DNA from: a virus
Taxonomy: Duplodnaviria; Heunggongvirae; Uroviricota; Caudoviricetes
Length of the DNA stretch: 53,288 nucleotides
Virus record (IMG/VR): IMGVR_UViG_3300025133_006513
Location: 1 to 53,288 of that record
Reading direction: 5' to 3' (one strand)
Shown here: positions 3 to 43,430 of the stretch, piece after piece
How positions within the stretch are numbered: position 1 is the first letter of the stretch
How the letters are laid out: every line of letters starts with the position of its first letter
Program-made: the position numbers and the translations under genes
Notes under the pieces: model-generated
Told to the model about the DNA's origin: nothing
What the model saw: only the letters and a program-made list of their open reading frames with translations
Databases searched by the model: none

Positions 3-3000
3 CATCGCTATTTCCTGGACCCAGAGACTGGCATCTTTAGAGTCCAGTTTGGGCAAGCACGTATGCCGTTGATGCCAGTGCTCAAAGCACTGGGTGCCAC
101 GGACAGTCAGCTCCGTAAGGCGTGGGGCAACGAGTTATTCGTTGCCAACGCCAAGAAGACGGACCCGACTACGCTCAAGAAGCTCTACCGCAAGGTTACC
201 CGGAACAAGTCGCCTGAGAATGACGAAGAGATGCATCAGGCTATCCGGAACGCCTTCGCTGACATGGAGCTCGATCCCGAGGTTACTGCTCGAACCCTCG
301 GTAAACCATACGCCACTGTGAACCCAGAGGTTATCTTGGCTTCGACTGCCAAGCTGCTGCGGGTGCATAAGGGTGAGGAGAAGTCCGACGATCGTGATGC
401 TATGGCGTATCAGCGGGTTATGGGTCCAGAGGATCTATTCGCTGAGCGTATGCGTAAAGCTGGCGGTACCATGCGGAATGCCCTATGGAAAGCCACGCTT
501 CCAGGCAATCTAAAGCGTGTACCCCCTGGCCTGATGGACAAGATTGTCCGCGGGGCTATCATCGAGACAGGCCTGGGTAACCCCCTGGAAGAGATCAACC
601 CTGCGGAACTGTACGATCAACGCGTACGAGTGACACGCATGGGCGAAGGCGGTATCCCTAGTAACGACTCAGTGCCAGACGAGGCACGTAACGTACAGCC
701 AAGCCACTTGGGCTTCGTCGACCCAGTCCACACACCAGAATCAGGCAAGATCGGTATCGACGGACGCTTTGCTGTCAGAACCCTCAAGGGCAACGATGGC
801 CGGCTCTACGCTCGCTTCACCGATCCTAAGAATGGCAAACCAATCTGGAAGTCTCCCCAAGATGTTGCTGACGCGATCGTTGCGTTTCCAGGGGAGTTAG
901 AAAAGGGCGAACCTCATGTTCGTGTGCAGCATAAAGGCAAGCTGAAATTTGTTCCTAGGAACAAAGTTGACTATCAGCTTGGCCATATGACAGAGGCTTT
1001 CGGGCCCCTAGCGTCGATGATCCCGCTGAAGGGTGCAGCCTTCGGGCAGCGTATCTCTATGGGTAGTCGATTTCTTTCGCAGGCGCTACCGTTGGTCAAC
1101 GCAGAGTCCCCGCTCGTGCAATCGGGTGTCCCTGGTATGAAGGACACGTCGTTCGAAGACTTGCTTGGCGCCGATATGGGTGCTGTGAAGAGCGAAGTCG
1201 ACGGGACTGTGCTTGAGGTTACACCCAGTCACGTCAAAATACGAGGGAGGGATCGCCGTGTTCATTACGCCGAGCTCTACGAAAACCATCCGTATAACCG
1301 GAAAACCTTTGTTCACAATCGACCCACCGTTAAGGCGGGTGATGCAGTCAAAGCAGGACAACTGCTCGCTGCTTCCAATTTCACAGATGATGGAGGTACG
1401 ACAGCGCTTGGCAAGAACGCCCGAGTCGCGTACCTGCCCTACAAGGGATACAACTTCGAAGACGCAATCGTCGTCTCTGAGTCCTTCGCCAAGCGGGCTT
1501 CGAGCGAACACATGTACCAACACAGCCTCGATCTTGGCGAGGGCGTTAAAGCTAGCAAAAACGCTTACACCGCCATCCTCCCGGGTGAATACGATCGCAA
1601 ACAGCTAGATCGCTACGATGACGACGGAGTTATCAAGATTGGCGAGACAGTCCAGATGGACGAAGCACTGGTGCTGGCAGTGAAAGAACGACAGACGGGT
1701 CCACGACTTGGGCGACGTAAAGCCTCCTGGGGCGATGCATCGATTAAGTGGGAACACCATGAGGAGGGTATTGTTACCGATGTACACAAAGGCAAAAAAG
1801 GCTATTCGGTCGTCGTTAAATCCGTACACCCAACCAAGGTCGGCGATAAGTTCGCGGGTCGATACGGTGACAAAGGGGTTGTCGCAGCGATCGTACCCGA
1901 CGAAGACATGCCGCACGGGGCGGATAAAAGGCCCTACGAAGTGCTACTCAACCCGCTGGGCGTCATCGGCCGAGGTAATCCATCCCAAATCATCGAAACG
2001 CAGCTCGGTAAGATCGCCGCGATCACGGGCAAACCGTACAAACTGATTGACTTCGATGACTTGCGTGATCTTCGTGAGTTCACCGAGCAAGAGCTGCGTA
2101 AGCACGGGCTCAACGACACAGAGGACCTGATCGATCCTAAGACTGGGCGTACGCTCAAAGGCATCGAAGCAGGGAATCGATTCATGATGAAGCTCCACCA
2201 CACTGCAGAGGTTAAGCTCGGCGGTCGTGGTGCTGCTGGTGGTTATACGGCTGAGGGGGCACCCGCTAAGGGCGGAAAGTCGGGATCTAAGCGAGTTGGT
2301 ATGTTAGAGCTCAACGCTCTTTTGTCTCACGGAGCTTATCAGACTATCCGTGATGCCAACGTGGTACGCGGTCAGCGAAACGAAGATCACTGGCGAATGC
2401 TCATGTCCGGGTATACACCCCCAGAGCCTAAAGTTCCCTTCATGTACCAGAAGTTCATGGCACAGTTGAAGGGTGCTGGTATCAATCCAATCAAGGAGGG
2501 GTCCAAGCTCCAGATTCTGGCTATGACTGGCGAGGGGGCCAAAGAGCTTACTGGTAACAGGGAGATCAGAAGCTCTGAAACCGTCGACTGGCGTGTAAAC
2601 AAGCTCTCACCTATTAAAGGGGGTTTGTTCGACGAGGCCCTTACAGGTGGGCACGGAGGTAATCGCTGGAGTTACATCAAGCTACCAGAGCCTTTACCTA
2701 ACCCAGTGATGGAAGAACCTATCAGACGCATCCTCGGGCTAACGCAGAAACAGTACGCCTCTATCTTAAGTGGCGCAGACCACGTGCCTGGTCAGGAAGG
2801 ATTAACTGGGCCGATCGGTATTCAGACGGCATTAGAGGGGATCAACCTCGATAAGGAGATCGTCAAAGCCCGCGCGGATATCAAGTCAGGACGTAAGACA
2901 TACAGGGATAAAGCAGTTCGACGCTTAGAGTTCCTCAAGTCTGCCCAGAAGAACAAGCAACATCCTCGTGAGTGGATGATGGACAGAATCCCGGTATTAC

Positions 3001-3908
3001 CGCCGATCTTCCGTCCAGTGAGCATGTTCGCTGAGACTAACACGCAACTGGTCGATGACTCGAACTACCTCTACAAGGAGGCGTTCGAAGCCGCCGAGAA
3101 CCTAAAGGCACTCGGGAAGATCAGTGATGATGTGTCTGAGGAGCGATTAGCGGTCTACAAGGCTTTCAAGGCTGTCACCGGCCTGGGCGACCCTTTATCC
3201 CCTGAATTCAAGGAACAAGATGTCAAAGGTATCCTTAAGCACGTCTTCGGAACCAGTCCTAAGCATGGTACAGTGCAGAAGAAGCTGCTTGGTAGCACTG
3301 TCGACCTCGTCGGACGGGCTACTATTACGCCAAACCCTAACCTGGATATGGATCAAGTAGGGTTACCGATCGAGGAAGCGTGGACGCTGTATCAGCCGTT
3401 TGTTATTCGTAGGTTGGTTCGTCGTGGGATGGGAAAAGTCAAAGCAATGGAGGAGGCTAAGGCCCGATCGCCTTTAGCGTTGAAGGAGCTGCAGGGCGAG
3501 ATGAAAGAGCGTCCAGTGGTTATTAACCGTGCACCGGTATTGCACCGCTACGGGGTTATGAGCTTCTGGCCACAGCTTACGTCATCGAGCACGCTGGAGA
3601 TTCCGCCGCTAGTCGTCGGGGGTTTTGGGGCTGACTTCGATGGTGATGCGATGCAGTTTCACATCCCTGCGAGTGAGGGAGCAGTTGAGGAAGCAAAATC
3701 AACGTTGATGCCGTCACGAAACTTACACGCTGCTGGTGACTTCGATGTACACTATAAGCCGAGCCATGAGTATGTAGGCGGGTTATGGGCAGCGTCGACG
3801 AAGGACTCGAAGAAACCACCCAGAGTATTTAAGACAAAGAAGGACGCGATCGCTGCTTACCGCAAAGGATCGATCGATGTTGGACAGCGTGTTGAGATCA
3901 TGGAGTAA
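3..3908 (+). CDS. rpoB-rpoC fusion: Phage multisubunit RNA polymerase: beta subunit (5'-truncated at window edge) fused in frame to N-terminal half of beta'
   Basis: Frame is open from nt 3 to the ATG at 63, so the gene begins upstream. Beta motifs: RNVQPSHLGFVDPVHTPES, GYNFEDAIVVSE, GDKFAGRYGDKGVV, LLNPLGV, KRVGMLELNAL. Beta' motifs follow without a stop: GLFDEALTG, PVLPPIFRP, LLGSTVDLVGRATI, NRAPVLHR, catalytic GADFDGD (3627-3647). Confidence 0.96.
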   Translation, partial: HRYFLDPETGIFRVQFGQARMPLMPVLKALGATDSQLRKAWGNELFVANAKKTDPTTLKKLYRKVTRNKSPENDEEMHQAIRNAFADMELDPEVTARTLGKPYATVNPEVILASTAKLLRVHKGEEKSDDRDAMAYQRVMGPEDLFAERMRKAGGTMRNALWKATLPGNLKRVPPGLMDKIVRGAIIETGLGNPLEEINPAELYDQRVRVTRMGEGGIPSNDSVPDEARNVQPSHLGFVDPVHTPESGKIGIDGRFAVRTLKGNDGRLYARFTDPKNGKPIWKSPQDVADAIVAFPGELEKGEPHVRVQHKGKLKFVPRNKVDYQLGHMTEAFGPLASMIPLKGAAFGQRISMGSRFLSQALPLVNAESPLVQSGVPGMKDTSFEDLLGADMGAVKSEVDGTVLEVTPSHVKIRGRDRRVHYAELYENHPYNRKTFVHNRPTVKAGDAVKAGQLLAASNFTDDGGTTALGKNARVAYLPYKGYNFEDAIVVSESFAKRASSEHMYQHSLDLGEGVKASKNAYTAILPGEYDRKQLDRYDDDGVIKIGETVQMDEALVLAVKERQTGPRLGRRKASWGDASIKWEHHEEGIVTDVHKGKKGYSVVVKSVHPTKVGDKFAGRYGDKGVVAAIVPDEDMPHGADKRPYEVLLNPLGVIGRGNPSQIIETQLGKIAAITGKPYKLIDFDDLRDLREFTEQELRKHGLNDTEDLIDPKTGRTLKGIEAGNRFMMKLHHTAEVKLGGRGAAGGYTAEGAPAKGGKSGSKRVGMLELNALLSHGAYQTIRDANVVRGQRNEDHWRMLMSGYTPPEPKVPFMYQKFMAQLKGAGINPIKEGSKLQILAMTGEGAKELTGNREIRSSETVDWRVNKLSPIKGGLFDEALTGGHGGNRWSYIKLPEPLPNPVMEEPIRRILGLTQKQYASILSGADHVPGQEGLTGPIGIQTALEGINLDKEIVKARADIKSGRKTYRDKAVRRLEFLKSAQKNKQHPREWMMDRIPVLPPIFRPVSMFAETNTQLVDDSNYLYKEAFEAAENLKALGKISDDVSEERLAVYKAFKAVTGLGDPLSPEFKEQDVKGILKHVFGTSPKHGTVQKKLLGSTVDLVGRATITPNPNLDMDQVGLPIEEAWTLYQPFVIRRLVRRGMGKVKAMEEAKARSPLALKELQGEMKERPVVINRAPVLHRYGVMSFWPQLTSSSTLEIPPLVVGGFGADFDGDAMQFHIPASEGAVEEAKSTLMPSRNLHAAGDFDVHYKPSHEYVGGLWAASTKDSKKPPRVFKTKKDAIAAYRKGSIDVGQRVEIME

Positions 3909-4020
3909 GCCATGCCAGTAGTGCTGTCAAAATTTTCGTCAAAACCCAATACGGAATTGTGTAAACAATCAGCTACAGATATGCTGGTAAGATATCACTG
4001 ACCCAAATGGAGTTCGCCTC

Positions 4021-4746
4021 ATGGCTAAACACGAAATGAACATGACGCTTTTTGATGTCGCCGCGTGGCGACTGCAGGGCGAGGCAGAGAAGCAAGCCTT
4101 CGTCCCTCAAGGAGCGACCGACCCCGCCGCTGGCGGTGGAGCACCTCCAATGGACCCAGCAATGGGTGGCGCACCTCCAATGGACCCAGCAATGGGTGGG
4201 ATTCCCCCTGGCATGCCTCCTGGTGCACCTCCAATGGACCCAGCTGCAATGGGCATGCCTCCAGCAGCTCCGCCTGCGGCACCTCCCGCGGCCCCTGGCG
4301 CTCCAGCAGCGGGCGGCAAGCCCAAGATTGACCCAACCTTCATCTACATGGAGCTGAGCCGCGTGCGTAAGCTTCTGACGCACATGATGAAGCACACAGG
4401 CATCGACATGCCACCTGATATCCTCGACGACGGTGCGACGGCGATGATCGCCAACGGCCAGATGCCAGAGAGTCAACCGATCGGGCAGCCGGGTGCCGAG
4501 GGTGCTCCCCCTGAAGGAGGGGGAGCACCGGGTGGCCTACCAAGCATCGGGCAGTCGCCGGCGATCGATCCGATCGCTGCTGCTGGTGGTCCTGGAGGCC
4601 CTGGCGGTCCTGAGAAGGGTGCCGGTGATGTGCTTTCAATGTTCCGTGGGCCAGCACCTGCTGACGATGCTTCGCCAAACTACGCTGCGGCTGAGCAACG
4701 CATCAACGCACTATGTGACCTGTCACGAAGCCTCAACGGAAGCTAA
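4021..4746 (+). CDS. Pro/Gly/Met/Ala-rich low-complexity protein, putative internal head protein
   Basis: 241 aa ORF with GGAG RBS, APPMDPAMGG repeats and AEKQA at aa 22-26. Function is inferred from the motif and neighbourhood. Confidence 0.8.
   Translation: MAKHEMNMTLFDVAAWRLQGEAEKQAFVPQGATDPAAGGGAPPMDPAMGGAPPMDPAMGGIPPGMPPGAPPMDPAAMGMPPAAPPAAPPAAPGAPAAGGKPKIDPTFIYMELSRVRKLLTHMMKHTGIDMPPDILDDGATAMIANGQMPESQPIGQPGAEGAPPEGGGAPGGLPSIGQSPAIDPIAAAGGPGGPGGPEKGAGDVLSMFRGPAPADDASPNYAAAEQRINALCDLSRSLNGS
4141..4244 (+). repeat. In-frame 30-bp tandem repeat (two copies plus a partial third)
   Basis: GCACCTCCAATGGACCCAGCAATGGGTGG at 4141-4170 and 4171-4200; first 20 nt recur at 4225-4244; encodes APPMDPAMGG. 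Confidence 0.95.
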
Positions 4747-5007
4747 TTGATGATCGTTGAGTTGCATAATAAGCTAGGACAGCCCCAGCGTATTGAAGCC
4801 ACACGCATCGTAATACGCTCCCCTAACGGGGAAGCGTTATGCGTGGCGGTGGAAGCGGGGCCTGGCCAGTATTTCATCACACACCGTGGTGATGGGGACG
4901 AGGACATGAATCGATCCCTACGCTCGCTGGGTATTAATGAGACCGTCATCAGTGATATGCAAAATATGCCGAAGCCGCCAGGCACGCTGTGGACGCCGGG
5001 GAGTTAA
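4747..5007 (+). CDS. Hypothetical protein (86 aa) between the two beta' halves
   Basis: ORF abuts the upstream stop (TTG 4747 or ATG 4750) and fills the gap to the beta'C start. Confidence 0.75.
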   Translation: MMIVELHNKLGQPQRIEATRIVIRSPNGEALCVAVEAGPGQYFITHRGDGDEDMNRSLRSLGINETVISDMQNMPKPPGTLWTPGS

Positions 5008-5010
5008 CCT

Positions 5011-6894: not shown

Positions 6895-6902
6895 CCGTTG
6901 CC

Positions 6903-6930: not shown

Positions 6931-6986
6931 AACAAGTCGCTTCGGCTAGGCTGGACGCCAAATTTTCCCAAGGACGAGGGTACCCC

Positions 6987-9380
6987 ATGAGCACTACGCA
7001 GCTCTCAAAGCCTGTTGCTCATTGGCAACGTGTTTGTCAATCGCATATTCGCACGCCAAATATTAAGCGTGCTGACCTGGGTGGTGATGGCCAATCCGTG
7101 CCGTTTGAGCAAGCATTTTCCAATCTTGCACACGCCTACCTTAAGGATCGCGCCCCGCAGCTTCTCGACCACGAACTGGGTTTCCAGCTCTTAGAGAAGA
7201 ACGAGGACAATGATCGCGCGGTCGGTATCTTTGGCTTCCGTGTCGGGAGTCAACTGCTCTATGCGCCAGTCTTCTTCCTCAATGGTGAATTGAAGGGTCA
7301 CGAGCTCCTGTATCTGAAGGACTCGGATACCTTTGTGCCGATGAAGGAGAACTGGATCAACTACGTGTTGAACCGCAAACCCAATATCATCGGTGAAGAG
7401 CTGGGCCCCAACCTGGCCAACGCAGGCGTCGATCGACCGAACATGGATGTCTTTCGTGAGTCGCCCGCCAAGTACGCAGCAGATCAGGCAGATCAGGCAG
7501 ACTGGCTGGCGCCGGCACTTCCCGGCCTGATGCACGTACTCGGCAACGCTATCCGCCCAGAGATGCAATGTCACGGGCTGGTCAAAGAGAACGCTGACTG
7601 TGCGCACATGTTCCTGCAGCTCCTGGACAAGCACCCCTCACTGGTATCCCCAGTCACAGAGGTCTACGGGAAGCAGATGATCAAGGACGCTATCGATACA
7701 GCGAAGACGCTGGATACGGTATCGCCCACGGGTGTGCCACGTAAACGCAAGTCTACCCACATCACCGGCAGCATCTTCACAGAGAAGTCTGCTAGCGATC
7801 TGGCTCAAGAACAACTTGCCGGTAAGCTCAAGATCTGGAAGTACGACGACAGCTCGCCAACGCGTGCCCGTCAGTGTGCAGCAGGGCTGACAGAGAAGCA
7901 GGCTCAGAACCTCAAGCGTGATGGTGTCTACGTCTCGGACGAACGCACCGAGGGCGAGGTCAGCAAAGCATACAAAGTCCAAGAGCCACTCAGCCTGATG
8001 AACCCGGACGCGAGCGGCATCTACCAGGTACTTACGAAGCCTGATGACTTCGAAGAGTGCCTGTACATCCATGGCCCCTTCAACGCCCGCGGCACCAAGC
8101 CCAACGGTGTGTTGGTGCGGATCGGCGATGGCGACAAAGCCTGGACAGAAACACACCCAGCTGCGATATACACGTCTGACGAGTATACCGGCGATACGTA
8201 CAGCGACTGGTTCGAGAAGCAACCTGAGGCAAAGAGCCTCTCCGTCGGATCGACTTACGTCCTGGTTGCCCCTAACGGCCAAGGCACAAGTGTGTTTGAG
8301 GTTGAGAGTACGCTACCGGCCGAGGGCGAGGAAAAAAGCTACGAGGTGAGGTGGCGTAACCGATGGGGTGCCCGCCGACCGGATCATCTGCCCCCAATTG
8401 CCGAACGCCGCCATGAGTATGATAGTGATTGTGCGGGTGCCGATACAGTTATGATGAATCGAATCAAGGGCCGCAAGTTCGTGGCTCGTCTTAACTGCCT
8501 GTACGTACCTGAGGGTGCCAAGGCCGTTAAGATCAAAGGTCCGGAGAAGCCCAAGAAGCACGATGGCCTCGCATATGTCGGCGATCACGAGGAATCAAGC
8601 GATCCTCCAGCCTTACGACCTGGCAACCACGTCGATCTCCAGATGGGCATCTACAAGATTTCGGAAGAACTGCAAGTCTTCAACAACGGCACTGAAGCTA
8701 TTGTTGATGGCCGACACATGACTCCGCTTGGTGCATTCGTACACTTGGTGCGCGACTACGGTTTGCGTGAAAAAACAGCCAAGGCATTGCTCACAGAAGC
8801 AGAGCTCAAGCGGGGTGTTAAGTGTCGTGTGAAGATGGCGTCGCCATACCAGGCACTCGGGCATGCCCCGACAGCGCCAGCGTTCCCTGAACCTGATCGT
8901 GGTACGGATATGTTCATGGGCTCAAACGTGCCCACTACGAACAGCTTCCAAGGCGATGAGATGGAGCTACCCGTCCAAGGGATGCAGGGTTCACCTAACC
9001 GACAACTGATGTCGGACCCTGTTGAACCACAGATGGGCCAACAGATACAAGAGGCTGCCCAGACAGGCCAGAAGGAGGTACTCGATACCGCGATGATGTC
9101 GAACCTGTTGAAGGGGACACAGAATGAGACGCTTATCGACAAGCACCTGTCGAACCTGATGAAGGGGCTCGATAGCCTCGGTCGCCTGTTGTTCAACATG
9201 TACTGGCACCACGACAAGTTCGAGGACCGGTATGGCGGCAATAACCTGCCAGAAATGACCGACGCCATGCGGAATGCCTTTGAGTCCTTGGGCGACGTTA
9301 CCCTCGAACTCAAGCAGAAATCTGTCGAGCCTTACCCAGATGAAGGTGTTGACATGGGCTTCGGCGAAGGCGAAATGTAA
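6987..9380 (+). CDS. Large putative internal head protein (797 aa)
   Basis: Long ORF with an N-terminal NIKRA and about 7 K-x-A motifs; no recognisable enzyme motif; lies in the head cluster. Confidence 0.75.
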   Translation: MSTTQLSKPVAHWQRVCQSHIRTPNIKRADLGGDGQSVPFEQAFSNLAHAYLKDRAPQLLDHELGFQLLEKNEDNDRAVGIFGFRVGSQLLYAPVFFLNGELKGHELLYLKDSDTFVPMKENWINYVLNRKPNIIGEELGPNLANAGVDRPNMDVFRESPAKYAADQADQADWLAPALPGLMHVLGNAIRPEMQCHGLVKENADCAHMFLQLLDKHPSLVSPVTEVYGKQMIKDAIDTAKTLDTVSPTGVPRKRKSTHITGSIFTEKSASDLAQEQLAGKLKIWKYDDSSPTRARQCAAGLTEKQAQNLKRDGVYVSDERTEGEVSKAYKVQEPLSLMNPDASGIYQVLTKPDDFEECLYIHGPFNARGTKPNGVLVRIGDGDKAWTETHPAAIYTSDEYTGDTYSDWFEKQPEAKSLSVGSTYVLVAPNGQGTSVFEVESTLPAEGEEKSYEVRWRNRWGARRPDHLPPIAERRHEYDSDCAGADTVMMNRIKGRKFVARLNCLYVPEGAKAVKIKGPEKPKKHDGLAYVGDHEESSDPPALRPGNHVDLQMGIYKISEELQVFNNGTEAIVDGRHMTPLGAFVHLVRDYGLREKTAKALLTEAELKRGVKCRVKMASPYQALGHAPTAPAFPEPDRGTDMFMGSNVPTTNSFQGDEMELPVQGMQGSPNRQLMSDPVEPQMGQQIQEAAQTGQKEVLDTAMMSNLLKGTQNETLIDKHLSNLMKGLDSLGRLLFNMYWHHDKFEDRYGGNNLPEMTDAMRNAFESLGDVTLELKQKSVEPYPDEGVDMGFGEGEM

Positions 9381-9882: not shown

Positions 9883-10833
9883 ATGAGCATCCTGGTAAAC
9901 AGACCTGATAACAAAAGGCGTCCAGCAAACTGGCGGTGGATGCGAGCGTGCGAACTTGCAGACGGAGCACGCTTAGTCCGCGGTCGCGATGATGAGATTG
10001 TGCGTTTTGCCAGTAAATTTCGTCGTCTGATGGACCGATGTGAATCGGACGAGGATAAGCTGGAGGCGCTTGACGCACAACCCGCGATGTTCGAAGCATA
10101 CACGATCTACATGGGTGAAGATGATGCGAGCGAGGTTAAGTGGGAGCTGGAAGCACGACTGCTTGGCGGCGAACCTGTAGCCTCGATCGAAGCGAAGCTG
10201 GGAATCGACCCTGCTACGATCTTCACATATGAGCGTGTGTTCTTCGATGTACTGAGCCGACGACACTCTACGAGCTTAATGGTCCATGTGGTGATCGGAC
10301 GGTCTGTACAGACTGGCCTTGCGGAGCGCGAGTACGACTGCCTATGGAAGCTCTTTAGTTATTTCGCCGGTATCCCAGTGCTGGACGCCTATATCTGGAA
10401 GTTTAATGGCGTGAAACACGTTGAAAGTGCAGATGGGGTGCGGACGGCATTCCGAGAAATTGCAAAAGATACCATAATGTCAAAGGCAGCTGTCACTGCG
10501 TTGACGCTACCAGCTAACTGGCAGAACAATGAGTTGATCCTGGGCACATGGCAGCAAATATGTGGGCAGGAGCAGATGGCCGGGCAAGCTAGTGGTGGTA
10601 CTGAAGTGATGATGCAGAACGTCGCTGTTTTGGTTGAAGGGTTCCAGCCGCTACTGCACAAGCACATACACGGCGTGGATCCAACACCAGGCGGTATTAT
10701 CGATGAGATCGAAGACACAGGTGTACGGTTACGCTCTGACGAGCTAGCTGCTATTGCCACAGGCAACGATGTGTCTGGGTTTGAACACTTCATTACCGCT
10801 AAGTTCCCTGATTCCCAAGGTGAGGACAAATGA
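9883..10833 (+). CDS. Protein with a putative helix-turn-helix (terminase small subunit-like or regulator)
   Basis: 316 aa; EPVASIEAKLGIDPATIFTYERVF resembles an HTH; no Shine-Dalgarno upstream. Confidence 0.6.
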   Translation: MSILVNRPDNKRRPANWRWMRACELADGARLVRGRDDEIVRFASKFRRLMDRCESDEDKLEALDAQPAMFEAYTIYMGEDDASEVKWELEARLLGGEPVASIEAKLGIDPATIFTYERVFFDVLSRRHSTSLMVHVVIGRSVQTGLAEREYDCLWKLFSYFAGIPVLDAYIWKFNGVKHVESADGVRTAFREIAKDTIMSKAAVTALTLPANWQNNELILGTWQQICGQEQMAGQASGGTEVMMQNVAVLVEGFQPLLHKHIHGVDPTPGGIIDEIEDTGVRLRSDELAAIATGNDVSGFEHFITAKFPDSQGEDK

Positions 10834-12557: not shown

Positions 12558-12582
12558 TAAATCAGGTTTAATGGAGTCCGTA

Positions 12583-13854
12583 ATGGATTACGACAATCTC
12601 ACATACGCTGACGCCAAAGGCATGCTCAAGCAAGCTGACGGCGACTGGATGCAAGCTTTAGCCCAGGGGGCTAAAGACTTCGGCAATACGGCTGTGCAAG
12701 GCGCTAAAGACCTTGGCAATATTGCTGTGGAGTCTTTCAACAATCAAGATCACAGGATCCCCTGGCATGCAGGTCTGGGTGCTCTCACAGGGGCAGGACT
12801 TGGTGCCGTCTCATCGAGGTTCCAGCCTAAGAAGCGACGCAACACGCTGGGGCGTATGCTGACTGGCGGTATGCTCGGGTCACTTGGTGGGCTCGGACTC
12901 GCGGCTGCAACTGATACAACGATCGCCGACAACCAGGCGGCTGATACAAAAGCGAAGCAAGATAAGGTGGACATAGCTACGTTCGAAGATTTGAATAATC
13001 CAAGCCCGCCCCTGACGGTGGAGCAGATAGTTATGGACCTAGGTAACGCAGGGCGTGATGCGTACGTAGGGGTGCGCGATCACTCAGACGTCGAAGGTAA
13101 GCTGGGCGATATAACCACCCGCGGCGGGCGGTACCTAGCGAACCTATACACCGGCACGGGTACCGATGAATCTAACAAAGCGTGGGCGAAATCTACGCCT
13201 GTGTTTGGTCAGTTTGCTGACGATGAATGGGCGGGCCCCCTCGCTAACCCATCACCGTACCTAGGTGCGACTATGGGTGCTTATCTTGGCGGCTGGCGGC
13301 ACCGGCCCGGGCGGTTAGCGGCTTATATCCCACGCTTTGGGCAAGAAGCGTTCTACAAGGCGGTGCAGAAGGACTTACAAAAAGCCAATCGAGGGCAAGG
13401 CCACATGTCTGTTCCGGATGGCGCTACGGATGGGAAAGCGACACTGACAGCCCACCAACTGCGTGACGCTCGCACTGCCAAAGTTAACCATGAAAAAGCA
13501 CAGAGGAAACCTAACACAGACGGCACACTGACACCGGCTGGACAGCAGGAAAAAGCATTCCTAAGGCGGATATTCAAAGGCCCCGGCACTGCCGCCGCGT
13601 TGAAGGGGGACTACCCTGGAGCCACGCATACCGACCCTAACTGGGACGATGCGGTGCAGCGGCAACGACGAGTCAAAGCCACCAAGTGGAAACAGATACG
13701 CAAGGCGGGGCTGTACGGATTACTCGCACACTTAGGTATACGGTTCACCCAAGACATGTATGGGGACCGCCCTGACGCGGTGATGCGTGAAGCACTACGC
13801 GCCGCGGCGAGAACTAAAGCAATAGCGGACGCGGCTGCGGCCGCGGAGCAATAA
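12583..13854 (+). CDS. Putative ejection protein with glycine-zipper membrane segments (423 aa)
   Basis: Start re-called at ATG 12583 (GGAG at 12573-12576, after the upstream stop). MLKQA at aa 14-18; GLGALTGAGLGAV, GGMLGSLGGLGL, LGATMGAYLGG; no Cys. Confidence 0.75.
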   Translation: MDYDNLTYADAKGMLKQADGDWMQALAQGAKDFGNTAVQGAKDLGNIAVESFNNQDHRIPWHAGLGALTGAGLGAVSSRFQPKKRRNTLGRMLTGGMLGSLGGLGLAAATDTTIADNQAADTKAKQDKVDIATFEDLNNPSPPLTVEQIVMDLGNAGRDAYVGVRDHSDVEGKLGDITTRGGRYLANLYTGTGTDESNKAWAKSTPVFGQFADDEWAGPLANPSPYLGATMGAYLGGWRHRPGRLAAYIPRFGQEAFYKAVQKDLQKANRGQGHMSVPDGATDGKATLTAHQLRDARTAKVNHEKAQRKPNTDGTLTPAGQQEKAFLRRIFKGPGTAAALKGDYPGATHTDPNWDDAVQRQRRVKATKWKQIRKAGLYGLLAHLGIRFTQDMYGDRPDAVMREALRAAARTKAIADAAAAAEQ

Positions 13855-31125: not shown

Positions 31126-33033
31126 ATGTCTTTTGTCTTCACTCATGAGCAAGTCATGAGAGAGGGGCACACGTTTGGCGTAAACGTACTAGCTTCACAA
31201 CGCGTTGTCATTGTCGGCGAGAATGCCCAAACCTTCAGCCACGAACCTGTCGGTACATATACCGGGGGTGCTGCTGCATATCCGTACCCGCAGCTGCCTG
31301 ATGACGCTATCGTTGACACACGCGGGGCCAGCGTCACAGCAACAAACGTCTTGCTCAGATACGCCCAAGCTGAGGCATCGCCCGTGGCTGCAACCCAGCC
31401 GAACCACCTAGGTGTTAAAACTGAGGTGGCAGGTGCCCGTGGGTTCCGCGTAGGTGATATTGTCAAACTGCCGGGGCGTAGTGCTGAGATCATGGCAGTC
31501 ATGCCTGGCGATGATGGGTTCTCTACGCTGGTGCTGAGTCGCAATATCCCTGTGGATTGCCGGGAAGCCGCTGTGTTTGATGTAGACTTCTGTCTGCTGA
31601 TAAACAATGTGTCGCTACCGCAGGCCTCCTGTACCAAAGAGCGATTCACGATACCTCGCGATCTGCGATTGCTGACATCAGCGTGGGCCCCCGACAATAA
31701 ACCGATCGCTCTGCCTGTTATCGAGGCTGACATCGCGATCACCTACAAAATCTGGTACAGTACCGACGCTGCCGCTGTTAAGACGATCCACTGCGATGAG
31801 GATCTCCAGGCTATCCGCGGAGATGTCGTCAGCGAGAATGATCTGAAAATGGCTACGTCGTTGGCTTTCCTCAACGCTGGCGGACGCCCTGTCTCCTACA
31901 TCGCAGTGCCCGAGCCCTTGGCCACACAATCATGGATTGCCGCTCTCAACCGTATAGATGATGGCTACAGCATTGTGCCGTGCACGACAGACCCCGAGGT
32001 CCTCACTGCAGTCACTGACTTCGTGGATCAACGGTCCAAACCAGAAGTCGGCCGAGAGTGTGTGGCGTGGTTCTCGCTGGCGACCCCCAACAGGCGTGTG
32101 ATTGCAGATGCCAGCAACAGCGTCGATTTCGAGCCGTTGGCTGGGGAATTGGTTAGCACAGGTGGCGGTGCTGTAGTCGAGGTGCCTGCGGGAAATGCCC
32201 GATTCATGTCGCTGGGAGTGGAAAAAGGCGACATATTACACGTACATGGCGCCGACGAGTACGTAATTGAGGAAGTCGTTAACGACGACAGCATACGCCT
32301 ACAGGGCGATCAATTTGACCATACAGGCCCCGTGGCTATCCACATATGGCGAAGATTGGATGCTGACGGTGTAGCCACAGCAATCGCAGATAAGGCAGCC
32401 TCCTACAGGAATAAACGTATCAGAGCAGTATGGCCAAACACGCTGACGGTCAACTATGACGACGACAGGTACGCTGGCGGCTGGTGCTTATGTGCAGCGT
32501 TGGCTGGGCTACGATCGGGCTGCGTGCCCCACCGGGACCTAACGGGTGTTCAATTGCTGGGTATCTCGCATATCCCAGCTTCCCCTCGCCTAGATAGCGA
32601 TCAATTGGATATGATGGCTGAATGCGGGGTGTGGGTCGTGGAACAGCAGGGTGATAACATCATCACACGGCGTGCCATCACTACTGCCGGATTGACCGAT
32701 CCCGGTTCGCGTGCTGAGGCAATTGTCACGAATCTTGACTCGATTAACAGGGGATTACGCGACTCCCTGCGGAAAGCAATGCAAACTGTGGCAATTACGG
32801 GTCGGTTCCAAGCCCGCGTTGCTGGTAAACTACGGAAGACGATGGAGGGATTAATTGGACGCAAGGCTACCTCCATTGGTGCTCAACTGATAGCAGGAGA
32901 TATCGAGGTGATGCGTCGACACGTATTCCTCGAAGGTAGTTTGGTTTTGAATGTAAAACTCACGATCCCGACCGGTTTCGGAAGTGATCGGAGCACCCCC
33001 ACGATAGATGTACATCAGACGGTGATCGCATAA
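31126..33033 (+). CDS. Contractile tail sheath protein (divergent)
   Basis: AAAGGAG RBS; 635 aa before the tube; CAALAGLRSG.VPHRDLT, LDMMAECGVWVV and ITRRAITT resemble the sheath C-terminal domain. Confidence 0.75.
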   Translation: MSFVFTHEQVMREGHTFGVNVLASQRVVIVGENAQTFSHEPVGTYTGGAAAYPYPQLPDDAIVDTRGASVTATNVLLRYAQAEASPVAATQPNHLGVKTEVAGARGFRVGDIVKLPGRSAEIMAVMPGDDGFSTLVLSRNIPVDCREAAVFDVDFCLLINNVSLPQASCTKERFTIPRDLRLLTSAWAPDNKPIALPVIEADIAITYKIWYSTDAAAVKTIHCDEDLQAIRGDVVSENDLKMATSLAFLNAGGRPVSYIAVPEPLATQSWIAALNRIDDGYSIVPCTTDPEVLTAVTDFVDQRSKPEVGRECVAWFSLATPNRRVIADASNSVDFEPLAGELVSTGGGAVVEVPAGNARFMSLGVEKGDILHVHGADEYVIEEVVNDDSIRLQGDQFDHTGPVAIHIWRRLDADGVATAIADKAASYRNKRIRAVWPNTLTVNYDDDRYAGGWCLCAALAGLRSGCVPHRDLTGVQLLGISHIPASPRLDSDQLDMMAECGVWVVEQQGDNIITRRAITTAGLTDPGSRAEAIVTNLDSINRGLRDSLRKAMQTVAITGRFQARVAGKLRKTMEGLIGRKATSIGAQLIAGDIEVMRRHVFLEGSLVLNVKLTIPTGFGSDRSTPTIDVHQTVIA

Positions 33034-37703: not shown

Positions 37704-38137
37704 TGCTCCACGCCTATTGTACGGGCGTGCTTGATCTCCGTGGCGACATATTAGACCTGAAATACTGGCAGAGAATCAGGATGGTTGTCGATCATATCGA
37801 GAGCTCGCTGTGGGTGGAGTATTACAAACATCAGCATGACTTCAATTTGGCGTTGATCGACTACAGCAATGAGGATGACACCTTTAAGCTGCATCATCGC
37901 CAGTTGGAGCAGCTTAGGAGCAGCATGGCCAAAGAACGTATGCCGTGGGAGAAGCTCGGTGATGACACACTGCAAGATACGATTGGAGCACTACGTGAAG
38001 GTTACTTAAAACGGTTCCCTGCTCCGCGTAGCGAGAAGGGCAAGGAAGCCATCGCAAAACAATTAGCCATCTGGAAGGAGCAACGCCGTGGGATCGTTTC
38101 AGGGCCCAAATCAGCCAAGCGGGAGTTATTCCGGTAA
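37703..38137 (+). CDS. Tail assembly chaperone C-terminal extension (gpT-like)
   Basis: In the -1 frame relative to the upstream chaperone; likely expressed as a G-T fusion. Confidence 0.75.
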   Translation: MLHAYCTGVLDLRGDILDLKYWQRIRMVVDHIESSLWVEYYKHQHDFNLALIDYSNEDDTFKLHHRQLEQLRSSMAKERMPWEKLGDDTLQDTIGALREGYLKRFPAPRSEKGKEAIAKQLAIWKEQRRGIVSGPKSAKRELFR

Positions 38138-40076
38138 CGCGATGCTGGACATGATGGTCCAAATGTTTGGATCTAAGCTCCTGCCTCCCGGTATGGTCTT
38201 AGGGCAATGGAACCCTAACCAGCCACTGGGTGACACCTTAGAGGCTCGCGAGTTTGGCCAAGGCCAAATGGGTGCAGCTATGGGTCTCGGCGGGCCTGCA
38301 GCTACACAGCACGTCCAAGAGCTAATCCAAGGCCGCGCCGGCAGTACGAATGGCGGGCTTGTTGGGATGGGTGTGCTCGACGAGAGCATATTTGGTGCCG
38401 GTAACCTGCAGACTGAGGATATTTCTAAGGCTGTCGGCGCTGCCATGCCGTACCTGTCGATGGCGTCTCCACAGCTGTTAGATATGATGGGTCCGGGCGC
38501 AGGGATGAGCGGGATGGGCTCCAACTATGCCTCAATGATGAGAGGCAATGGCTTGAATTCGGGCCAGCTCACAGACCGAGCTGTTACACTTGGGCAGGAC
38601 GTCAGCAGCCAGCTCTACGGCGGGAACAGTGGTGATTTCTCCCAGACCATGGGAATCGGGTACTCCGAAGGTAGTGCCCTGCTTCGCGGTGCCGGCAACA
38701 TGGGTATTGCACCCACAGGTGCACAGTTACTCGGTATGGGCAGGACAGAAGCCCGTGAAGCTGCGTCAAAGGCTACGATGGACCTGTCACACGGTTCTGC
38801 GGCTATTCGTGACCTGGGTGGGCATTATGCTGCAATGAACCCCGAACAACGAATGACGACGCTCGATCAGCTATCGATGGGTAGGTTGTCCGCTGGCGAG
38901 AATGCTGCAGGTCTCGGTATGCAGGTACGCCAATTCAAGCAGACCACCAGGGCGGCAGGGCTCAGTCTCGGGGAAGGCCAGGGCTTGATGCAGATTGCTG
39001 GCGCTCGTTCGGCCGCGCTTGGCGGTAACATGCAGTCAGGGACAGTAGGGGGCTCACACGCTGCCGCTTACGGTGCCTTCTTGAACAGTGATAAAGGTGC
39101 AGGCTATGTCTCGGCGGCTGGCGTTAGTTCGAATACGCTGCTGCAGCAAGATGCTGTGCTTACAGCCCAGGCCGGGCGGAGCAATACAGCGGCAAACGCC
39201 TCAGCACTGATGGAAATGGGTGAGGCAGGTATGCTAGAGGGCGAAGCACTGAAAAAATATGAGTCCTTGAAAGAAGGTAAGTACGAGGCCATGGGTGACG
39301 GTGCCTTCCGTAGCATGCTTAAAAAGAGTGGTATGAATATGAACGTAGCCAGTACGATTATGAGCAACCGCGAGGAGAACCTTGCGAATCACGGGGACTC
39401 TGTAGCTGGTGCTGTCCGCGGCAGCCAATGGAACGCGGATATCGCGCCATCCATGCAGCGTGACGTTGCCAACGCGATGGGTGCAGCCGGAGGTGGAGCA
39501 TTCTCGACCAAGCAGACGATGAACGCTGGGGCTATGGTCGCAGAAACATTGAAAGGCATGGGCGGGAAGTCGCGTAAGGAAATGATAGACGCAGTGGCGG
39601 CTAAGTACCAAGCTGACGGCATGAACGAACAGCAGGCCCAGAACGCCGCACGTGTTAGCGTGAGTGCTGCAGGGATGTCGGTAAGGAAGAAGGGCTATAA
39701 GGGCGGCATTGGCCACGCTGTGTCGCTGCATGGGGATGAAGTCGCAGGCGGTGTTGCCGATCAAGAGGGCAGGGCAGCAACAAAAGCGCAAGAAGAAGCA
39801 GATACCGCAGATCAGGGGCAAAAAGGCCCGTGGGCGCGACTCGCAGACGGTATCAAGGATGGTACTAAAAGTGCCGCAGAGTTCTTTGCCAAAGTGATTG
39901 GTGGCGTTAAGAAACCAGCAAGCGGTAGTGGAGACACAGATGCCAGCGGCAGTGACAGCGACGGCAGTGGCGGTATTCCAAAGGTGAAAATCGATGGTAC
40001 CGTTTCCGTGGTCGTGCACGGTGCAGGTGATGTGCCCGATACAGGGTCGGGAATGGGTTCAACGATGGGGCCATAA
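38088..40076 (+). CDS. Tape measure protein
   Basis: 662 aa, Gly/Ala/Met-rich and helical, follows the G/GT pair; GTG start with AAGGAG (alternative ATG 38142); no Cys. Confidence 0.8.
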   Translation: MGSFQGPNQPSGSYSGNAMLDMMVQMFGSKLLPPGMVLGQWNPNQPLGDTLEAREFGQGQMGAAMGLGGPAATQHVQELIQGRAGSTNGGLVGMGVLDESIFGAGNLQTEDISKAVGAAMPYLSMASPQLLDMMGPGAGMSGMGSNYASMMRGNGLNSGQLTDRAVTLGQDVSSQLYGGNSGDFSQTMGIGYSEGSALLRGAGNMGIAPTGAQLLGMGRTEAREAASKATMDLSHGSAAIRDLGGHYAAMNPEQRMTTLDQLSMGRLSAGENAAGLGMQVRQFKQTTRAAGLSLGEGQGLMQIAGARSAALGGNMQSGTVGGSHAAAYGAFLNSDKGAGYVSAAGVSSNTLLQQDAVLTAQAGRSNTAANASALMEMGEAGMLEGEALKKYESLKEGKYEAMGDGAFRSMLKKSGMNMNVASTIMSNREENLANHGDSVAGAVRGSQWNADIAPSMQRDVANAMGAAGGGAFSTKQTMNAGAMVAETLKGMGGKSRKEMIDAVAAKYQADGMNEQQAQNAARVSVSAAGMSVRKKGYKGGIGHAVSLHGDEVAGGVADQEGRAATKAQEEADTADQGQKGPWARLADGIKDGTKSAAEFFAKVIGGVKKPASGSGDTDASGSDSDGSGGIPKVKIDGTVSVVVHGAGDVPDTGSGMGSTMGP

Positions 40077-42689: not shown

Positions 42690-43430
42690 ATGCCAAAGAA
42701 TATGCTAGAGCCTGACTACCAGTTGCCATATGACAATTGGGTAGCTGATCCATCCCCTACGAACACTGGGCAGCTGATTAAAGCTGTCAAACCGGTGCTG
42801 AGTTCAGCGGTGCGAGCGTACGGGGGTACGTCTGCCAGGAGCACGAACATTAAGTCACAGGCCAAGCGTATGGCTGCCGACGCCTTCAGTTCGTATGATC
42901 CAGCACGGGGCACATTGAAATCACACCTCATGTCACGCCTTCAGCGGTTACGCCGAGTGGCAGCCCAGCAGCGGCAGGTCATCCGTGTCCCAGAGCAGGT
43001 AGCTCTCGATCAGATGCGATCGGACGCTGCGACACGTGAATTGGAAGAGAGCCTGGGTTATCCTCCATCAGACCAGCAACTCGCGGATTACACGAATTTG
43101 TCGCTTAAACGCCTCGCATACATCAGAGGGAGTGAGCGCCCACTCGCGGAGAGTACGATTTCGCGTGGTGGCGAGGAGGGCCTTGGTGGCTACGATCCGC
43201 GGGTTCGATCGCTAGCAAAACCCGCAGACGCGTGGGAGGAGCTTATCTACGATGACATCGATGAGACTAACCAGTTCATTATGGAGCGTGTGCTCGGAAT
43301 GCACGGACATCAGCCAACCAAGCCCAGTCAGGTGGCTGTGATGTTGAAAATTAGCCCTGCCGCCGTAAGCCATCGCATGGCCCAGATTCAAGCAAAACTG
43401 GACAAGCGAGAAGACTTGGGGATGATCTAA
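42690..43430 (+). CDS. Sigma70-family sigma factor (group 3, FliA/WhiG-like)
   Basis: Region 2 LIKAVKPVLSSAVRAY...YDPARG; IRVP; region 3 LEESLGYPPSDQQLADYTNLS; region 4 HTH TKPSQVAVMLKISPAAVSHR; GGAG RBS. Confidence 0.9.
   Translation: MPKNMLEPDYQLPYDNWVADPSPTNTGQLIKAVKPVLSSAVRAYGGTSARSTNIKSQAKRMAADAFSSYDPARGTLKSHLMSRLQRLRRVAAQQRQVIRVPEQVALDQMRSDAATRELEESLGYPPSDQQLADYTNLSLKRLAYIRGSERPLAESTISRGGEEGLGGYDPRVRSLAKPADAWEELIYDDIDETNQFIMERVLGMHGHQPTKPSQVAVMLKISPAAVSHRMAQIQAKLDKREDLGMI

Follow-up and report, generated by a model that had tools for sequence, protein, structure and literature searches.

The window, by which we mean the whole stretch of DNA analysed (53,288 nucleotides of a 153-kb contig), marks the start of the virion-gene block in an uncultured phage, about 200 kb in size, that belongs to the lineage of Salmonella phage Arash. 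A tail sheath gene indicates a contractile tail. The features on which the analysis rests are listed below.

3..3908, + strand: beta-beta'N of RNA polymerase (RNAP), i.e. beta fused to the N-terminal part of beta'; Pfam Rpb2_6, 1.4e-54, and Rpb1_2, 2.1e-23
4021..4746, + strand: Ala/Pro/Gly/Met-rich protein of 241 aa between the RNAP genes, 1 Cys; probably largely disordered, judged by sequence and composition
4747..5007, + strand: ORF of 86 aa with 1 Cys, also between the RNAP genes; a gene call in L130
5011..6894, + strand: beta'C, the C-terminal part of beta'; Pfam Rpb1_5, 2.4e-21; 4-Cys zinc site replaced
6987..9380, + strand: conserved virion-block protein of 797 aa, 8 Cys; phmmer 8.8e-13 to Arash gp218
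10830..12557, + strand: Cys-free protein of 575 aa with one hydrophobic glycine-zipper-like segment; candidate internal/ejection protein
12571..13854, + strand: Cys-free protein of 427 aa with two glycine-zipper-like hydrophobic segments; candidate ejection/membrane protein
13890..15389, + strand: conserved virion protein of 499 aa, 8 Cys; tblastn 8.8e-30 to Arash gp222
17972..18898, + strand: major capsid protein (MCP); 30% identity along the whole protein to Arash gp226, itself annotated as MCP, E=5e-37
31126..33033, + strand: tail sheath, 10 Cys; phrog_279, 8.9e-9
38088..40076, + strand: Gly/Ala/Ser/Met-rich protein of 662 aa, 0 Cys; probable tape measure by position and composition alone
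42690..43430, + strand: 246-aa sigma factor, a divergent member of the sigma-70 family; domains sigma2, sigma3 and sigma4; profile, AlphaFold/Foldseek and orthology to Gp10
44220..45443, + strand: baseplate wedge protein (gp6-like); phrog_6, 2.3e-20; homologous to Arash gp13

PHROGs matches were obtained for 4 of the 40 window proteins tested, namely the sheath, the baseplate wedge and two members of function-less families. No match in Pfam or PHROG was found for the 241-aa protein, the 575-aa protein, or the probable tape measure. The start of the 427-aa protein was set at the ATG past an upstream stop. Arash homology puts the capsid gene at 17972-18898 and the portal gene at 131970-133985 of the contig; hence, 6987-9380 as portal and 13890-15389 as capsid were rejected. 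A scaffold at 12397-13854 was dropped as well, because the glycine-zipper segments argue against it. The Arash counterpart of the 797-aa protein, gp218, is described as a 'structural protein' by mass spectrometry (PMC10585845).

The sequence-only reading had placed the RNAP genes at the head of the head-protein block and the sigma gene among late structural genes. The analysis confirmed this arrangement and found it kept in relatives as distant as Arash. In this phage, in the complete relative G002, and in Arash, the sigma gene lies approximately 40 kb downstream of the RNAP genes, inside the baseplate genes; here its neighbourhood was recognized as baseplate because the wedge gene is nearby. 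The gene of the probable tape measure is flanked by the sheath/tube genes on one side and by the baseplate genes on the other. The orthologues of the 241-aa protein, at the same position, have 228 aa in G005 and 251 aa in G002 and no Cys in either, and the ORFs at the position of the 86-aa ORF have 95 and 71 aa, respectively. A nucleotide search of positions 1-7000 against 50,697 phage records gave no match. Related loci were found with an alignment as the query and none with a single protein.

The RNAP and the sigma factor

The Pfam domains Rpb2_6, Rpb2_3, and Rpb1_2 were recognized in ORF 3-3908, and Rpb1_5 in ORF 5011-6894. beta-beta'N carries the catalytic motif GADFDGD, aligns to beta' up to approximately residue 550, and ends shortly past DFDGD; beta'C is a separate gene. 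Judged from the alignments, the catalytic motifs are intact and strongly conserved. The N-terminal zinc-binding region of beta' is deleted. The canonical 4-Cys zinc site is kept in 10 aligned remoter relatives, Arash gp216 included, and reads T/G/Y/D here; both beta' zinc sites of the cellular type are thus gone. The alpha-subunit profile RNA_pol_A_bac, which matched 14 of 14 control genomes, had no match at E<=1 in five genomes of the lineage, and none of four complete relatives encodes an alpha subunit. Taken together, the sequences describe a pared-down bacterial-type RNAP of two chains, without an alpha gene and without zinc sites. A search with Rpb2_6 gave one match in each of the four complete relatives (approximately 200 kb each) and one in this contig, and no second, non-virion RNAP was found in any of them. 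The C-terminal extension of beta'C in relatives was considered as a counterpart of the 797-aa protein encoded 3' of beta'C here; the two have no homology, and the candidate was rejected.

The sigma gene had been described as encoding a canonical sigma70 factor. The family assignment stood, and the word canonical did not. Profile matches were to SigA/SigB/RpoS (E=2.8e-6). The AlphaFold model had a pLDDT of 79.5, and sigma factors made up all of its best 50 Foldseek matches in the PDB (probability 1.00, E as low as 5e-7); by its predicted fold, the protein is a genuine, divergent member of the sigma-70 family. In Pfam, only Sigma70_r3 was matched, at 21.4 bits, below the cut-off of 25.3; Sigma70_r2 had no match anywhere in the genome, and r4 was below the cut-off in relatives. 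The Tyr and the pair of Trp in region 2.3 are the aromatic residues that melt the -10 element. In a profile alignment with E. coli RpoS, the Tyr is replaced by an invariant His and the two Trp by Ser and Arg. A phmmer search with Arash gp10 gave one significant match per genome in five genomes (1.5e-9 to 4e-19), and this was the sigma in each. The sigma is single in each of the three complete relatives checked by profile, and neither a second sigma nor a homologue of Arash gp196 was found in these or in the contig by the same check.

Complex prediction supported the pairing of sigma with beta'N weakly, with a score of 0.57 against 0.00 for the best of 3 controls; that the mark was reached may reflect memory of solved sigma-beta' complexes. 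Of 80 solved complexes, 58 attained this mark, as did 2 of 110 mismatched pairs; scores of <=0.60 were found in only 7 of the 80 solved complexes and in both mismatches that reached the mark. At least 43% of the contacts agreed between the prediction runs, and the pLDDT of the partner was at least 69.

Cysteine content of the RNAP and the sigma factor

By direct count, beta-beta'N (1301 aa, open at the contig start), beta'C (627 aa), and the sigma (246 aa) contain 0 Cys in 2,174 residues, as the sequence-only reading had claimed. The cut beta gene was not lengthened by joining the contig end to the contig start; its 5' end was taken from another assembly of the same phage (P0061/L130). At full length (P0061, 1456 aa), beta-beta'N also has 0 Cys, and it is 100% identical to the window ORF over the common part. 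Because Cys makes up on average 1.25% of the 49 window ORFs and 1.68% of the proteins of the 153-kb contig, 27-36 Cys would be expected in the RNAP and sigma. It was also true that some other window proteins are Cys-rich, for example the product of 46387-48390 with 40 Cys (6.0%).

E. coli beta and beta' together have 22 Cys in 2,749 aa, and the positions that are normally Cys were found by alignment to be replaced one by one, in agreement with the earlier claim. In beta, C559 is replaced by D, C636 by V, C764 by F, C770 by T, and C838 by L; in beta', C198 is replaced by I, C366 by V, C454 by V, and C517 by T. The GLFC-type and LVC-type motifs of RNAP were aligned and have lost their Cys likewise.

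A short protein can be Cys-free by chance (p ~0.05 for 246 aa at 1.25% Cys), and chance or a genome-wide composition bias might be held to account for the whole pattern. For the three proteins jointly, however, the probability of finding no Cys is approximately 1e-12 to 1e-16; the Cys-free state is kept in hundreds of homologues, and inserts within the same ORFs have approximately 3% Cys. Family counts already refute this explanation, and its likelihood is practically nil.

Conservation of the cysteine purge among relatives

A comparison of homologous RNAP and sigma sets bore the purge out. Among the 120 best homologues of beta-beta'N (52-100% identical), 95 have 0 Cys and 7 have 1 Cys. Approximately 100 of the 120 share the layout of 1,440-1,560 aa; the rest are mostly longer and insert-bearing. 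Every homologue with >2 Cys bears an insert, with the Cys confined to one stretch of 300-500 residues, and intein or LAGLIDADG domains were recognized in many of them. In 150 representatives of beta'C, the aligned cores have 0.087% Cys vs. 0.56% in the non-aligned parts. Not one Cys occurs in the 14,072 aa of the 57 sigma homologues, whose identity goes down to 36%. Remoter relatives, which are approximately 33% identical and have beta and beta' fully fused, mostly have about 4 Cys.

When the proteins common to five clade genomes were compared, the sigma alone lacked Cys in every one of them; for each of the RNAP chains, the count was 0 in four genomes and 2 in the fifth. A 128-aa protein, matched in two clade genomes, has 0 Cys in both, and the 575-aa protein has 0-3 Cys across the clade genomes and 0.31% over twelve homologues. 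The 427-aa protein has a counterpart of 459 aa with 0 Cys in G005. The probable tape measure has an orthologue of 833 aa with 0 Cys in the same genome, and is Cys-free in both genomes matched. Most of the remaining common proteins have Cys in every genome; the orthologues of the 797-aa protein have 8-9 Cys in all five. In relatives, the gene directly upstream of the RNAP gene encodes a membrane-type protein with almost no Cys. In complete relatives, a gp217-like helicase is Cys-free, and so is a protein of 655 aa that carries 2H-phosphoesterase and NUDIX domains; the helicase gene was not found in this incomplete contig. Domains of these two kinds, 2H-phosphoesterase and NUDIX, occur in 'polyvalent' proteins predicted to be injected.

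The Cys purge of the RNAP and the sigma is therefore a product of selection and not an effect of composition. E. coli RpoS also has 0 Cys in 330 aa, so a Cys-free sigma by itself is unremarkable; for the sigma, the weight rests on the family-wide conservation of Cys absence.

Selection need not have acted on virion cargo. The RNAP and the sigma could be unpackaged intracellular enzymes, purged of Cys for robustness to oxidative or electrophile stress, for independence of zinc or thiol redox, or for immunity to a thiol-directed attack on RNAP; each of these is a possibility. Such an enzyme would fit the loss of both zinc sites, as metal independence, and the existence of Cys-free cellular sigmas such as RpoS. 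It would leave unexplained the purge of the probable tape measure, the membrane-type neighbours, the helicase, and the long disordered tails of beta'C, as well as the fixed place of the genes among virion genes. Most other common proteins, including those of 652 to 1075 aa encoded outside the virion block, keep their Cys, which also speaks against it. Together with the particle data given below, these points make an unpackaged enzyme unlikely.

Comparison with the cultured phage Arash

Arash (OQ632216) resembles this phage in having beta fused to beta'N and a separate beta'C, the RNAP genes ahead of the capsid block, an orthologous sigma within the tail/baseplate genes, and a tail indicated to be contractile. 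By tblastn, gp206 is 31.8% identical to beta-beta'N over 97% of the query; beta'C (7e-42), capsid (5e-37), terminase (4e-53), portal (3e-53), and baseplate proteins are also homologous. The Cys content is very low in Arash too, with 1 Cys in the 1,525 aa of gp206 and none in the 234 aa of gp10. Arash differs in that its beta'C keeps the 4-Cys zinc site, the gene of the helicase Gp217 adjoins beta'C, and a second, RpoS-like sigma (gp196, 3 Cys) is encoded. The relationship is remote: identity is 31-32% for the RNAP and 24% for the sigma.

Arash particles purified by sucrose gradient were analysed by LC-MS (PMC10585845). Gp206 (beta-beta'N) was the most abundant protein, with 3,516 spectra; Gp216 (beta'C) has 1,210, and the sigma Gp10 has 467 at 100% coverage. 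The second sigma, gp196, is not among the table rows examined. From these counts (PMC10585845), the spectra per residue are 2.3 for Gp206, 2.0 for Gp216, and 2.0 for Gp10, amounts that are compatible with equimolar RNAP chains and sigma. Since the cultured relative has the same proteins in its particles, packaging in this phage is probable and well supported by homology. The 116 'virion' proteins of the Arash study include ribonucleotide reductases and RNA ligases, and its authors allow for carry-over of abundant proteins (PMC10585845). Such contamination by abundant enzymes would suit unpackaged RNAP and sigma; it would leave unexplained why Gp206 exceeds the capsid protein in spectra. The gene numbers of Arash partly disagree between PMC10585845 and the sequence record.

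Promoters and known virion RNAPs

Sigma70-like host promoters in the late region had been taken to fit an N4-like division of labour. This claim was not supported. In positions 1-20000, 8 sigma-70-like promoters were found vs. 11.5 +/- 3.4 in shuffles, and host sigma-70 promoters as drivers of the late region were dropped for want of any excess. Because there is no promoter excess, one RNAP set, and one sigma, N4-like sharing with the host RNAP is unsupported. No phage-specific promoter motif was found by a k-mer search upstream of genes in four genomes, which returned only the ribosome-binding site and terminator-like palindromes.

The statement that the N4 virion RNAP is Cys-free holds: not one of the 3,500 residues of gp50 is a Cys, and gp51 and gp52 lack Cys as well. 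Cys suppression across the ejection operon is a conserved feature of N4-like phages (Schitoviridae) (PMC11445570). N4 and this phage have in common that Cys is wholly suppressed in a transcription enzyme and its companions, which in N4 are packaged and ejected and here would be, and that the genes lie among late virion genes with neighbours of a membrane-active type. They differ in that gp50 is a single-chain T7-like polymerase without sigma from a short-tailed phage, and N4 encodes a second RNAP and uses the host RNAP late, whereas this phage has a two-barrel bacterial-type RNAP with a sigma, a contractile tail, and no second RNAP found.

Phages of the phiKZ/AR9 type also encode multisubunit beta/beta' relatives without alpha, with genes beside the head genes, and theirs are packaged. 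The phiKZ type has four or five chains and a paralogous non-virion RNAP, and its enzymes use no sigma-70-family factor (PMC7824862). The RNAP described here is much nearer to cellular RNAP (Pfam E=1e-54) than the phiKZ type. The virion RNAP of phiKZ has 0.61% Cys (16 in 2,614 aa) vs. 1.16% in its non-virion enzyme. This depletion is only about two-fold, so the absence of Cys does not characterise packaged multisubunit RNAPs in general, and packaging does not demand a Cys purge. The two-barrel RNAPs of crAss-like phi14:2 (gp66) and Thermus phage P23-45 (fused to the tape measure) are delivered with the DNA (PMC10770324), but they are single-chain, highly divergent, and sigma-independent. A second, non-virion RNAP, as in N4, phiKZ, AR9, and P23-45, is absent here.

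To our knowledge, the characterised virion RNAPs (N4, phiKZ/AR9, crAss-like, and P23-45) all function without a sigma-70-family factor.

This phage probably belongs to the mReC group (multisubunit-RNAP-encoding Caudovirales), likewise metagenomic tailed phages, some of >200 kb, with deep-branching beta/beta' matched by cellular profiles. The paper on that group (Weinheimer and Aylward, 2020; PMC7481178) is silent on cysteine, inteins, sigma, and packaging in the virion, and crAssphage is the one case in which it speaks of a fusion.

Discussion

The best explanation of these observations, to which we give a probability of roughly 0.65, is that the Cys-purged RNAP and sigma are loaded into the particle, ejected with the DNA, and start phage transcription. 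Both would be synthesised late, alongside the structural proteins, and loaded into the particle; in the next cell, they would exit with the DNA and begin phage transcription, the sigma presumably acting on the phage core. Such cargo would wait in an oxidising environment, cross the tail and the envelope unfolded, and refold unaided. Disulfides and thiol oxidation would damage it, and Cys would be purged as a result, an explanation already proposed for the N4 ejection proteins. The earlier proposal that RNAP and sigma are packaged and ejected is thus supported by homology in its first half, through the LC-MS of Arash; ejection and early transcription we infer.

Some points weigh against this explanation. 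The particle data come from Arash alone, whose RNAP shares just 31-32% identity with the one described here. The search for a phage-specific promoter motif returned none. The sheath and the gp218-like and gp222-like virion proteins of this phage have a normal Cys content, and the packaging argument therefore needs the extra assumption that the constraint falls on ejected cargo only. Because a single RNAP is encoded, the same enzyme must also serve as the non-virion enzyme.

The proteins might also be packaged without forming a working injected holoenzyme, either as structural or DNA-organising head cargo, or with the core alone delivered and the sigma acting on the host RNAP. Many phage sigmas redirect the host RNAP, and the predicted sigma-beta'N complex is weakly supported (0.57 against 0.00 for the controls). 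The injected core may need host parts, because no alpha subunit is encoded in the four complete relatives. The intact and strongly conserved catalytic motifs point the other way, as do the RNAP being the sole one in four complete genomes and the sigma the sole one in the three checked by profile. The same unusual constraint also acts on both RNAP and sigma, and in Arash the two have similar spectra per residue. A reading of this kind is quite unlikely.

A fuller version of ejection with the DNA is offered tentatively, as somewhat doubtful. A complete sigma-dependent holoenzyme of beta-beta'N, beta'C, and sigma, without alpha, zinc, or Cys, would be carried in the head with a Cys-free helicase and other cargo, refold without metal or disulfide chemistry, and serve as the sole RNAP throughout infection. 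If so, the lineage would be independent of the host RNAP from the first minute by means of one enzyme, and its list of Cys-free proteins would be a read-out of the ejected proteome from sequence. A packaged bacterial-type RNAP with a true sigma would represent a novel means by which a phage supplies its own transcription, and a natural minimal RNAP of two chains that lacks alpha, zinc, and Cys would be of interest for RNAP assembly and folding. If the link between purge and ejection extends past the N4-like phages, Cys content would offer an inexpensive way to predict which proteins of uncultured phages are injected.

This is a very large lineage, and its environmental homologues number in the thousands. 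It has cultured members, namely Arash on Salmonella and D69, D148, and D181 on Vibrio; therefore, the idea is testable at the bench now. As a minor observation, beta'C of relatives bears a long low-complexity tail, which loosely recalls a fusion to an ejected or tail-internal protein.

Cysteine content and identity of the three proteins

The IMG/VR viral contig whose first 53,288 nt form the window is linear, 153,465 nt long and 71% complete (CheckV). Every large ORF of the window lies on the + strand, and three were analyzed by direct counting of cysteine.

3-3908, + strand: beta-beta'N fusion of RNA polymerase (RNAP), 1301 aa, 0 Cys
5011-6894, + strand: beta'C, 627 aa, 0 Cys
42690-43430, + strand: sigma factor, 246 aa, 0 Cys

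When the contig was joined end to start, its end did not continue the first ORF; the truncation of the beta gene hence simply reflects where the contig begins. The full-length gene of the same phage, found in another assembly, encodes 1456 aa, is identical in the shared part, and also has no Cys. The sequence-only reading, that RNAP and sigma are devoid of Cys, is thus borne out over 2,174 residues. Mean Cys content is 1.25% across 49 window ORFs and 1.68% across the whole contig, from which 27-36 Cys would be expected in these residues, with a probability of finding none of approximately 1e-12 to 1e-16. Cys-rich proteins also exist in the window, as had been claimed, the maximum being 40 Cys in 667 aa (6.0%) at 46387-48390. 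This protein, encoded downstream of the baseplate genes, also has 28 Trp; its orthologue in the related phage genome G005 has 43 Cys, and it is possibly a disulfide- or metal-stabilized fibre or receptor-binding protein.

The first ORF contains, in order, Rpb2 domains 3 and 6 and Rpb1 domains 1 and 2 (Pfam). Its product is a fusion of beta with the N-terminal portion of beta' that stops a short way past GADFDGD. Rpb1 domain 5 identifies the second ORF as beta'C. E. coli beta and beta' contain 22 Cys in 2,749 aa; in the alignment, all alignable ones are replaced by D, V, F, T, L or I in the window proteins. Aligning the window enzyme with B. subtilis beta' recovered the individual replacements listed earlier and showed a deletion of the N-terminal zinc-binding region.

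The split of beta' (window 3780-3908 / 5011) lies at nearly the same point as in cyanobacterial beta'; beta'N can be aligned with the cyanobacterial gamma subunit as far as approximately residue 552-556 of 624-626. Between the two RNAP genes, 4021-4746 encodes a 241-aa protein with repeated GGAPPMDPAM-type units and 18 Met, whose position is conserved and whose sequence is barely so.

Conservation of the cysteine purge

The proposed counts in the upstream part of beta and in homologous RNAP and sigma sets showed that the purge is kept across the family. Among the 120 closest beta-beta'N homologues (52-100% identical), 95 have no Cys and 7 have one. Those with more than two Cys are all long and insert-bearing, often with intein-type domains in the inserts, and their Cys are confined to one stretch of 300-500 residues. 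That Cys-rich inserts occur within otherwise Cys-free proteins excludes mutation or composition as the cause of the purge. For beta'C, the part aligning to the window protein contains 81 Cys in 92,626 aa (0.087%) over 150 representatives. All 57 sigma homologues (identity down to 36%; 14,072 aa in total) are without Cys.

The clade was compared using the contig and the entire records of four related genomes, three of them 98-100% complete. Sigma alone lacks Cys in every one of the five; the two RNAP chains each have none in four genomes and 2 in the remaining one. Both matched copies of the probable tape measure are without Cys, and the remaining common proteins mostly retain Cys. Remoter relatives (approximately 33% identity) mostly have one beta-beta' chain of approximately 2,050-2,150 aa that usually contains about 4 Cys. 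In the 10 of these that were aligned, four Cys correspond to the canonical C...C...CxxC zinc-binding residues of beta', and the same columns read T, G, Y and D in the window's clade. Low Cys is thus old in the family, and the window's clade took it to completion.

Outside the window, the RNAP genes of many relatives (homologues P0067-P0165 and P0181-P0330) are interrupted by Cys-rich inserts at several different sites. Many inserts have intein or LAGLIDADG domains, and the inserts contrast naturally with the Cys-free protein around them; a single junction Cys may persist in some spliced products.

Comparison with N4, phiKZ and RpoS

In N4, gp50 (3,500 aa) lacks Cys altogether, as do gp51 and gp52 from the same operon; the replication proteins of this phage contain 1.1-1.4%. 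Published work describes Cys suppression as a conserved trait of the N4-like ejection operon (PMC11445570) and links it to passage through the periplasm (PMC11445570; PMC3915230). In having 0 Cys, the window RNAP is like gp50 of that operon. E. coli RpoS also has 0 Cys, so a Cys-free sigma alone would prove little. The chain set that we take to form the phiKZ virion RNAP agrees with the record labels 'structural head protein'; it retains 16 Cys in 2,614 aa, whereas the window RNAP has none. The non-virion phiKZ enzyme has 33 in 2,850 aa (composition from PMC4666361). phiKZ therefore breaks a strict Cys-purge rule.

The sigma factor

The product of 42690-43430 fell below the Pfam cut-off. A profile of 33 homologues matched SigA, SigB and RpoS from region 2 to region 4.2 (E=2.8e-6), and, with an AlphaFold model (pLDDT 79.5), the 50 best Foldseek matches were all sigma factors. 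By profile and model, it is a real sigma-70-family protein, but a divergent one. In region 2.3, an invariant His aligns with the usual Tyr, and Ser and Arg with the Trp pair; -10 recognition or promoter melting may therefore differ from that of sigma-70.

The proposed modelling of an RNAP-sigma complex was run for sigma and beta'N and gave weak support: the score was 0.57 versus 0.00 for the best of three controls, the runs agreeing in at least 43% of contacts and the partner having a pLDDT of at least 69. For calibration, 58 of 80 solved complexes and 2 of 110 mismatched pairs attained the mark used, and scores of 0.60 or less included only 7 of the 80 solved complexes but both passing mismatches. 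Prior exposure of the predictor to solved sigma-beta' complexes may account for the pass.

Virion proteins of a cultured relative

A protein search of a phage collection found Vibrio phages D69, D148 and D181 and Salmonella phage Arash (OQ632216) as cultured relatives. Arash gp206 is a beta-beta'N fusion (31.8% identical, 97% of the query covered), gp216 is beta'C, and gp10, a 234-aa sigma encoded among the tail and baseplate genes, is orthologous to the window sigma. Arash also has homologues of the window's capsid, baseplate wedge, terminase, portal, and gp218-like and gp222-like virion proteins. Its particles were purified by sucrose gradient and analyzed by LC-MS (PMC10585845).

Table. Arash proteins in LC-MS of purified particles, from PMC10585845. 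Spectra per residue were calculated here from the paper's numbers and are semi-quantitative only.
Protein; spectra; spectra per residue
Gp206 (beta-beta'N); 3,516, the highest of all proteins; 2.3
Gp216 (beta'C); 1,210; 2.0
Gp217 (helicase); 1,148; 2.4
Gp10 (sigma); 467, 100% coverage; 2.0
Portal; 877; 1.5

The Cys counts fit the pattern: 1 in gp206, 4 in gp216 (zinc site), and 0 in gp10 and gp217. A second Arash sigma, gp196, has 3 Cys and is absent among the MS table rows examined (PMC10585845). The Arash authors offer two possibilities, early transcription and carry-over of abundant proteins, and do not discuss cysteine (PMC10585845). Particle evidence for the lineage is the Arash MS table only.

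Gene neighborhood and candidate ejected proteins

In the window phage, its complete relative G002, and Arash, the sigma gene lies approximately 40 kb downstream of the RNAP genes, within the baseplate chain. A nearly Cys-free protein of 260-440 aa adjoins the RNAP gene upstream in relatives, with glycine-rich hydrophobic segments in the two copies inspected; for the window phage, its last 102 residues are seen on L130 (2-310), the locus from the other assembly. Two further proteins flank the RNAP genes.

10830-12557, + strand: Cys-free protein, one hydrophobic glycine-zipper-like segment
12571-13854, + strand: Cys-free protein, hydrophobic glycine-zipper-like segments, as in the RNAP-upstream protein

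These three, all Cys-free, are candidate membrane-active ejection proteins, loosely resembling N4 gp51/gp52 or T7 gp14-16. In many relatives, beta'C is extended C-terminally by 340-1,100 highly variable, Ala/Pro/Gly/Gln-rich and essentially Cys-free residues (alignment A3); a few extensions contain DUF5661, DUF4269, NUDIX, SNF2 helicase, kinase-like or acylphosphatase domains, and the window's own beta'C has no extension. Complete relatives encode a Cys-free gp217-like helicase and another protein devoid of Cys, whose 2H-phosphoesterase and NUDIX domains are of a kind seen in 'polyvalent' proteins predicted to be injected.

Proposed role in infection

The explanation we consider most probable (about 0.65) is that RNAP and sigma are produced alongside the virion proteins, are loaded into the head, and enter the new host together with the DNA to initiate transcription there. 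The loss of Cys and zinc sites would then reflect the need of ejected cargo to withstand conditions outside the cell and to refold once it has passed through. Of the packaged and ejected machine proposed from sequence, packaging gains support through homology to Arash, by which it would extend to the window phage; ejection and early transcription are what we infer.

An N4-like hand-over to host RNAP, also proposed, is not indicated, because only one RNAP and one sigma were found: each of four complete relatives (approximately 200 kb) has one RNAP set and no detected alpha subunit, and profile searches of the contig and three of these relatives gave one sigma each and no gp196 homologue. The same phage RNAP probably serves throughout infection. 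The suggested sigma-70-like promoters were not enriched in 1-20000 (8 versus 11.5 ± 3.4 in shuffles), and no phage-specific promoter motif was found.

The lineage was described from metagenomes as 'mReC', with sigma, virion and cysteine unmentioned (PMC7481178), and a comparison of 224 jumbo phages reported no sigma factor in any RNAP-encoding group (PMC7824862). In the literature, we found no report noting a Cys purge in these enzymes or treating them as a virion holoenzyme.

Other features of the window

The strongest terminator-like hairpin of the first 20 kb (19854-19880; 11 pairs, 8 G-C, then a T run) lies approximately 1 kb downstream of the capsid gene, directly after ORF 19445-19825. 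In block 19929-28104, nearly all ORFs are without an orthologue in four relatives. ORF 26855-27508, with no homologue in these relatives, encodes a Cys-free protein of 217 aa, rich in Ala, Val, Thr, Pro and Ser, consisting almost wholly of about ten repeats like SPSPAVIDFTAVAP....SV. Within the same block, 22927-24132 encodes a sulfotransferase-domain protein (Pfam 3.5e-7) among virion genes.
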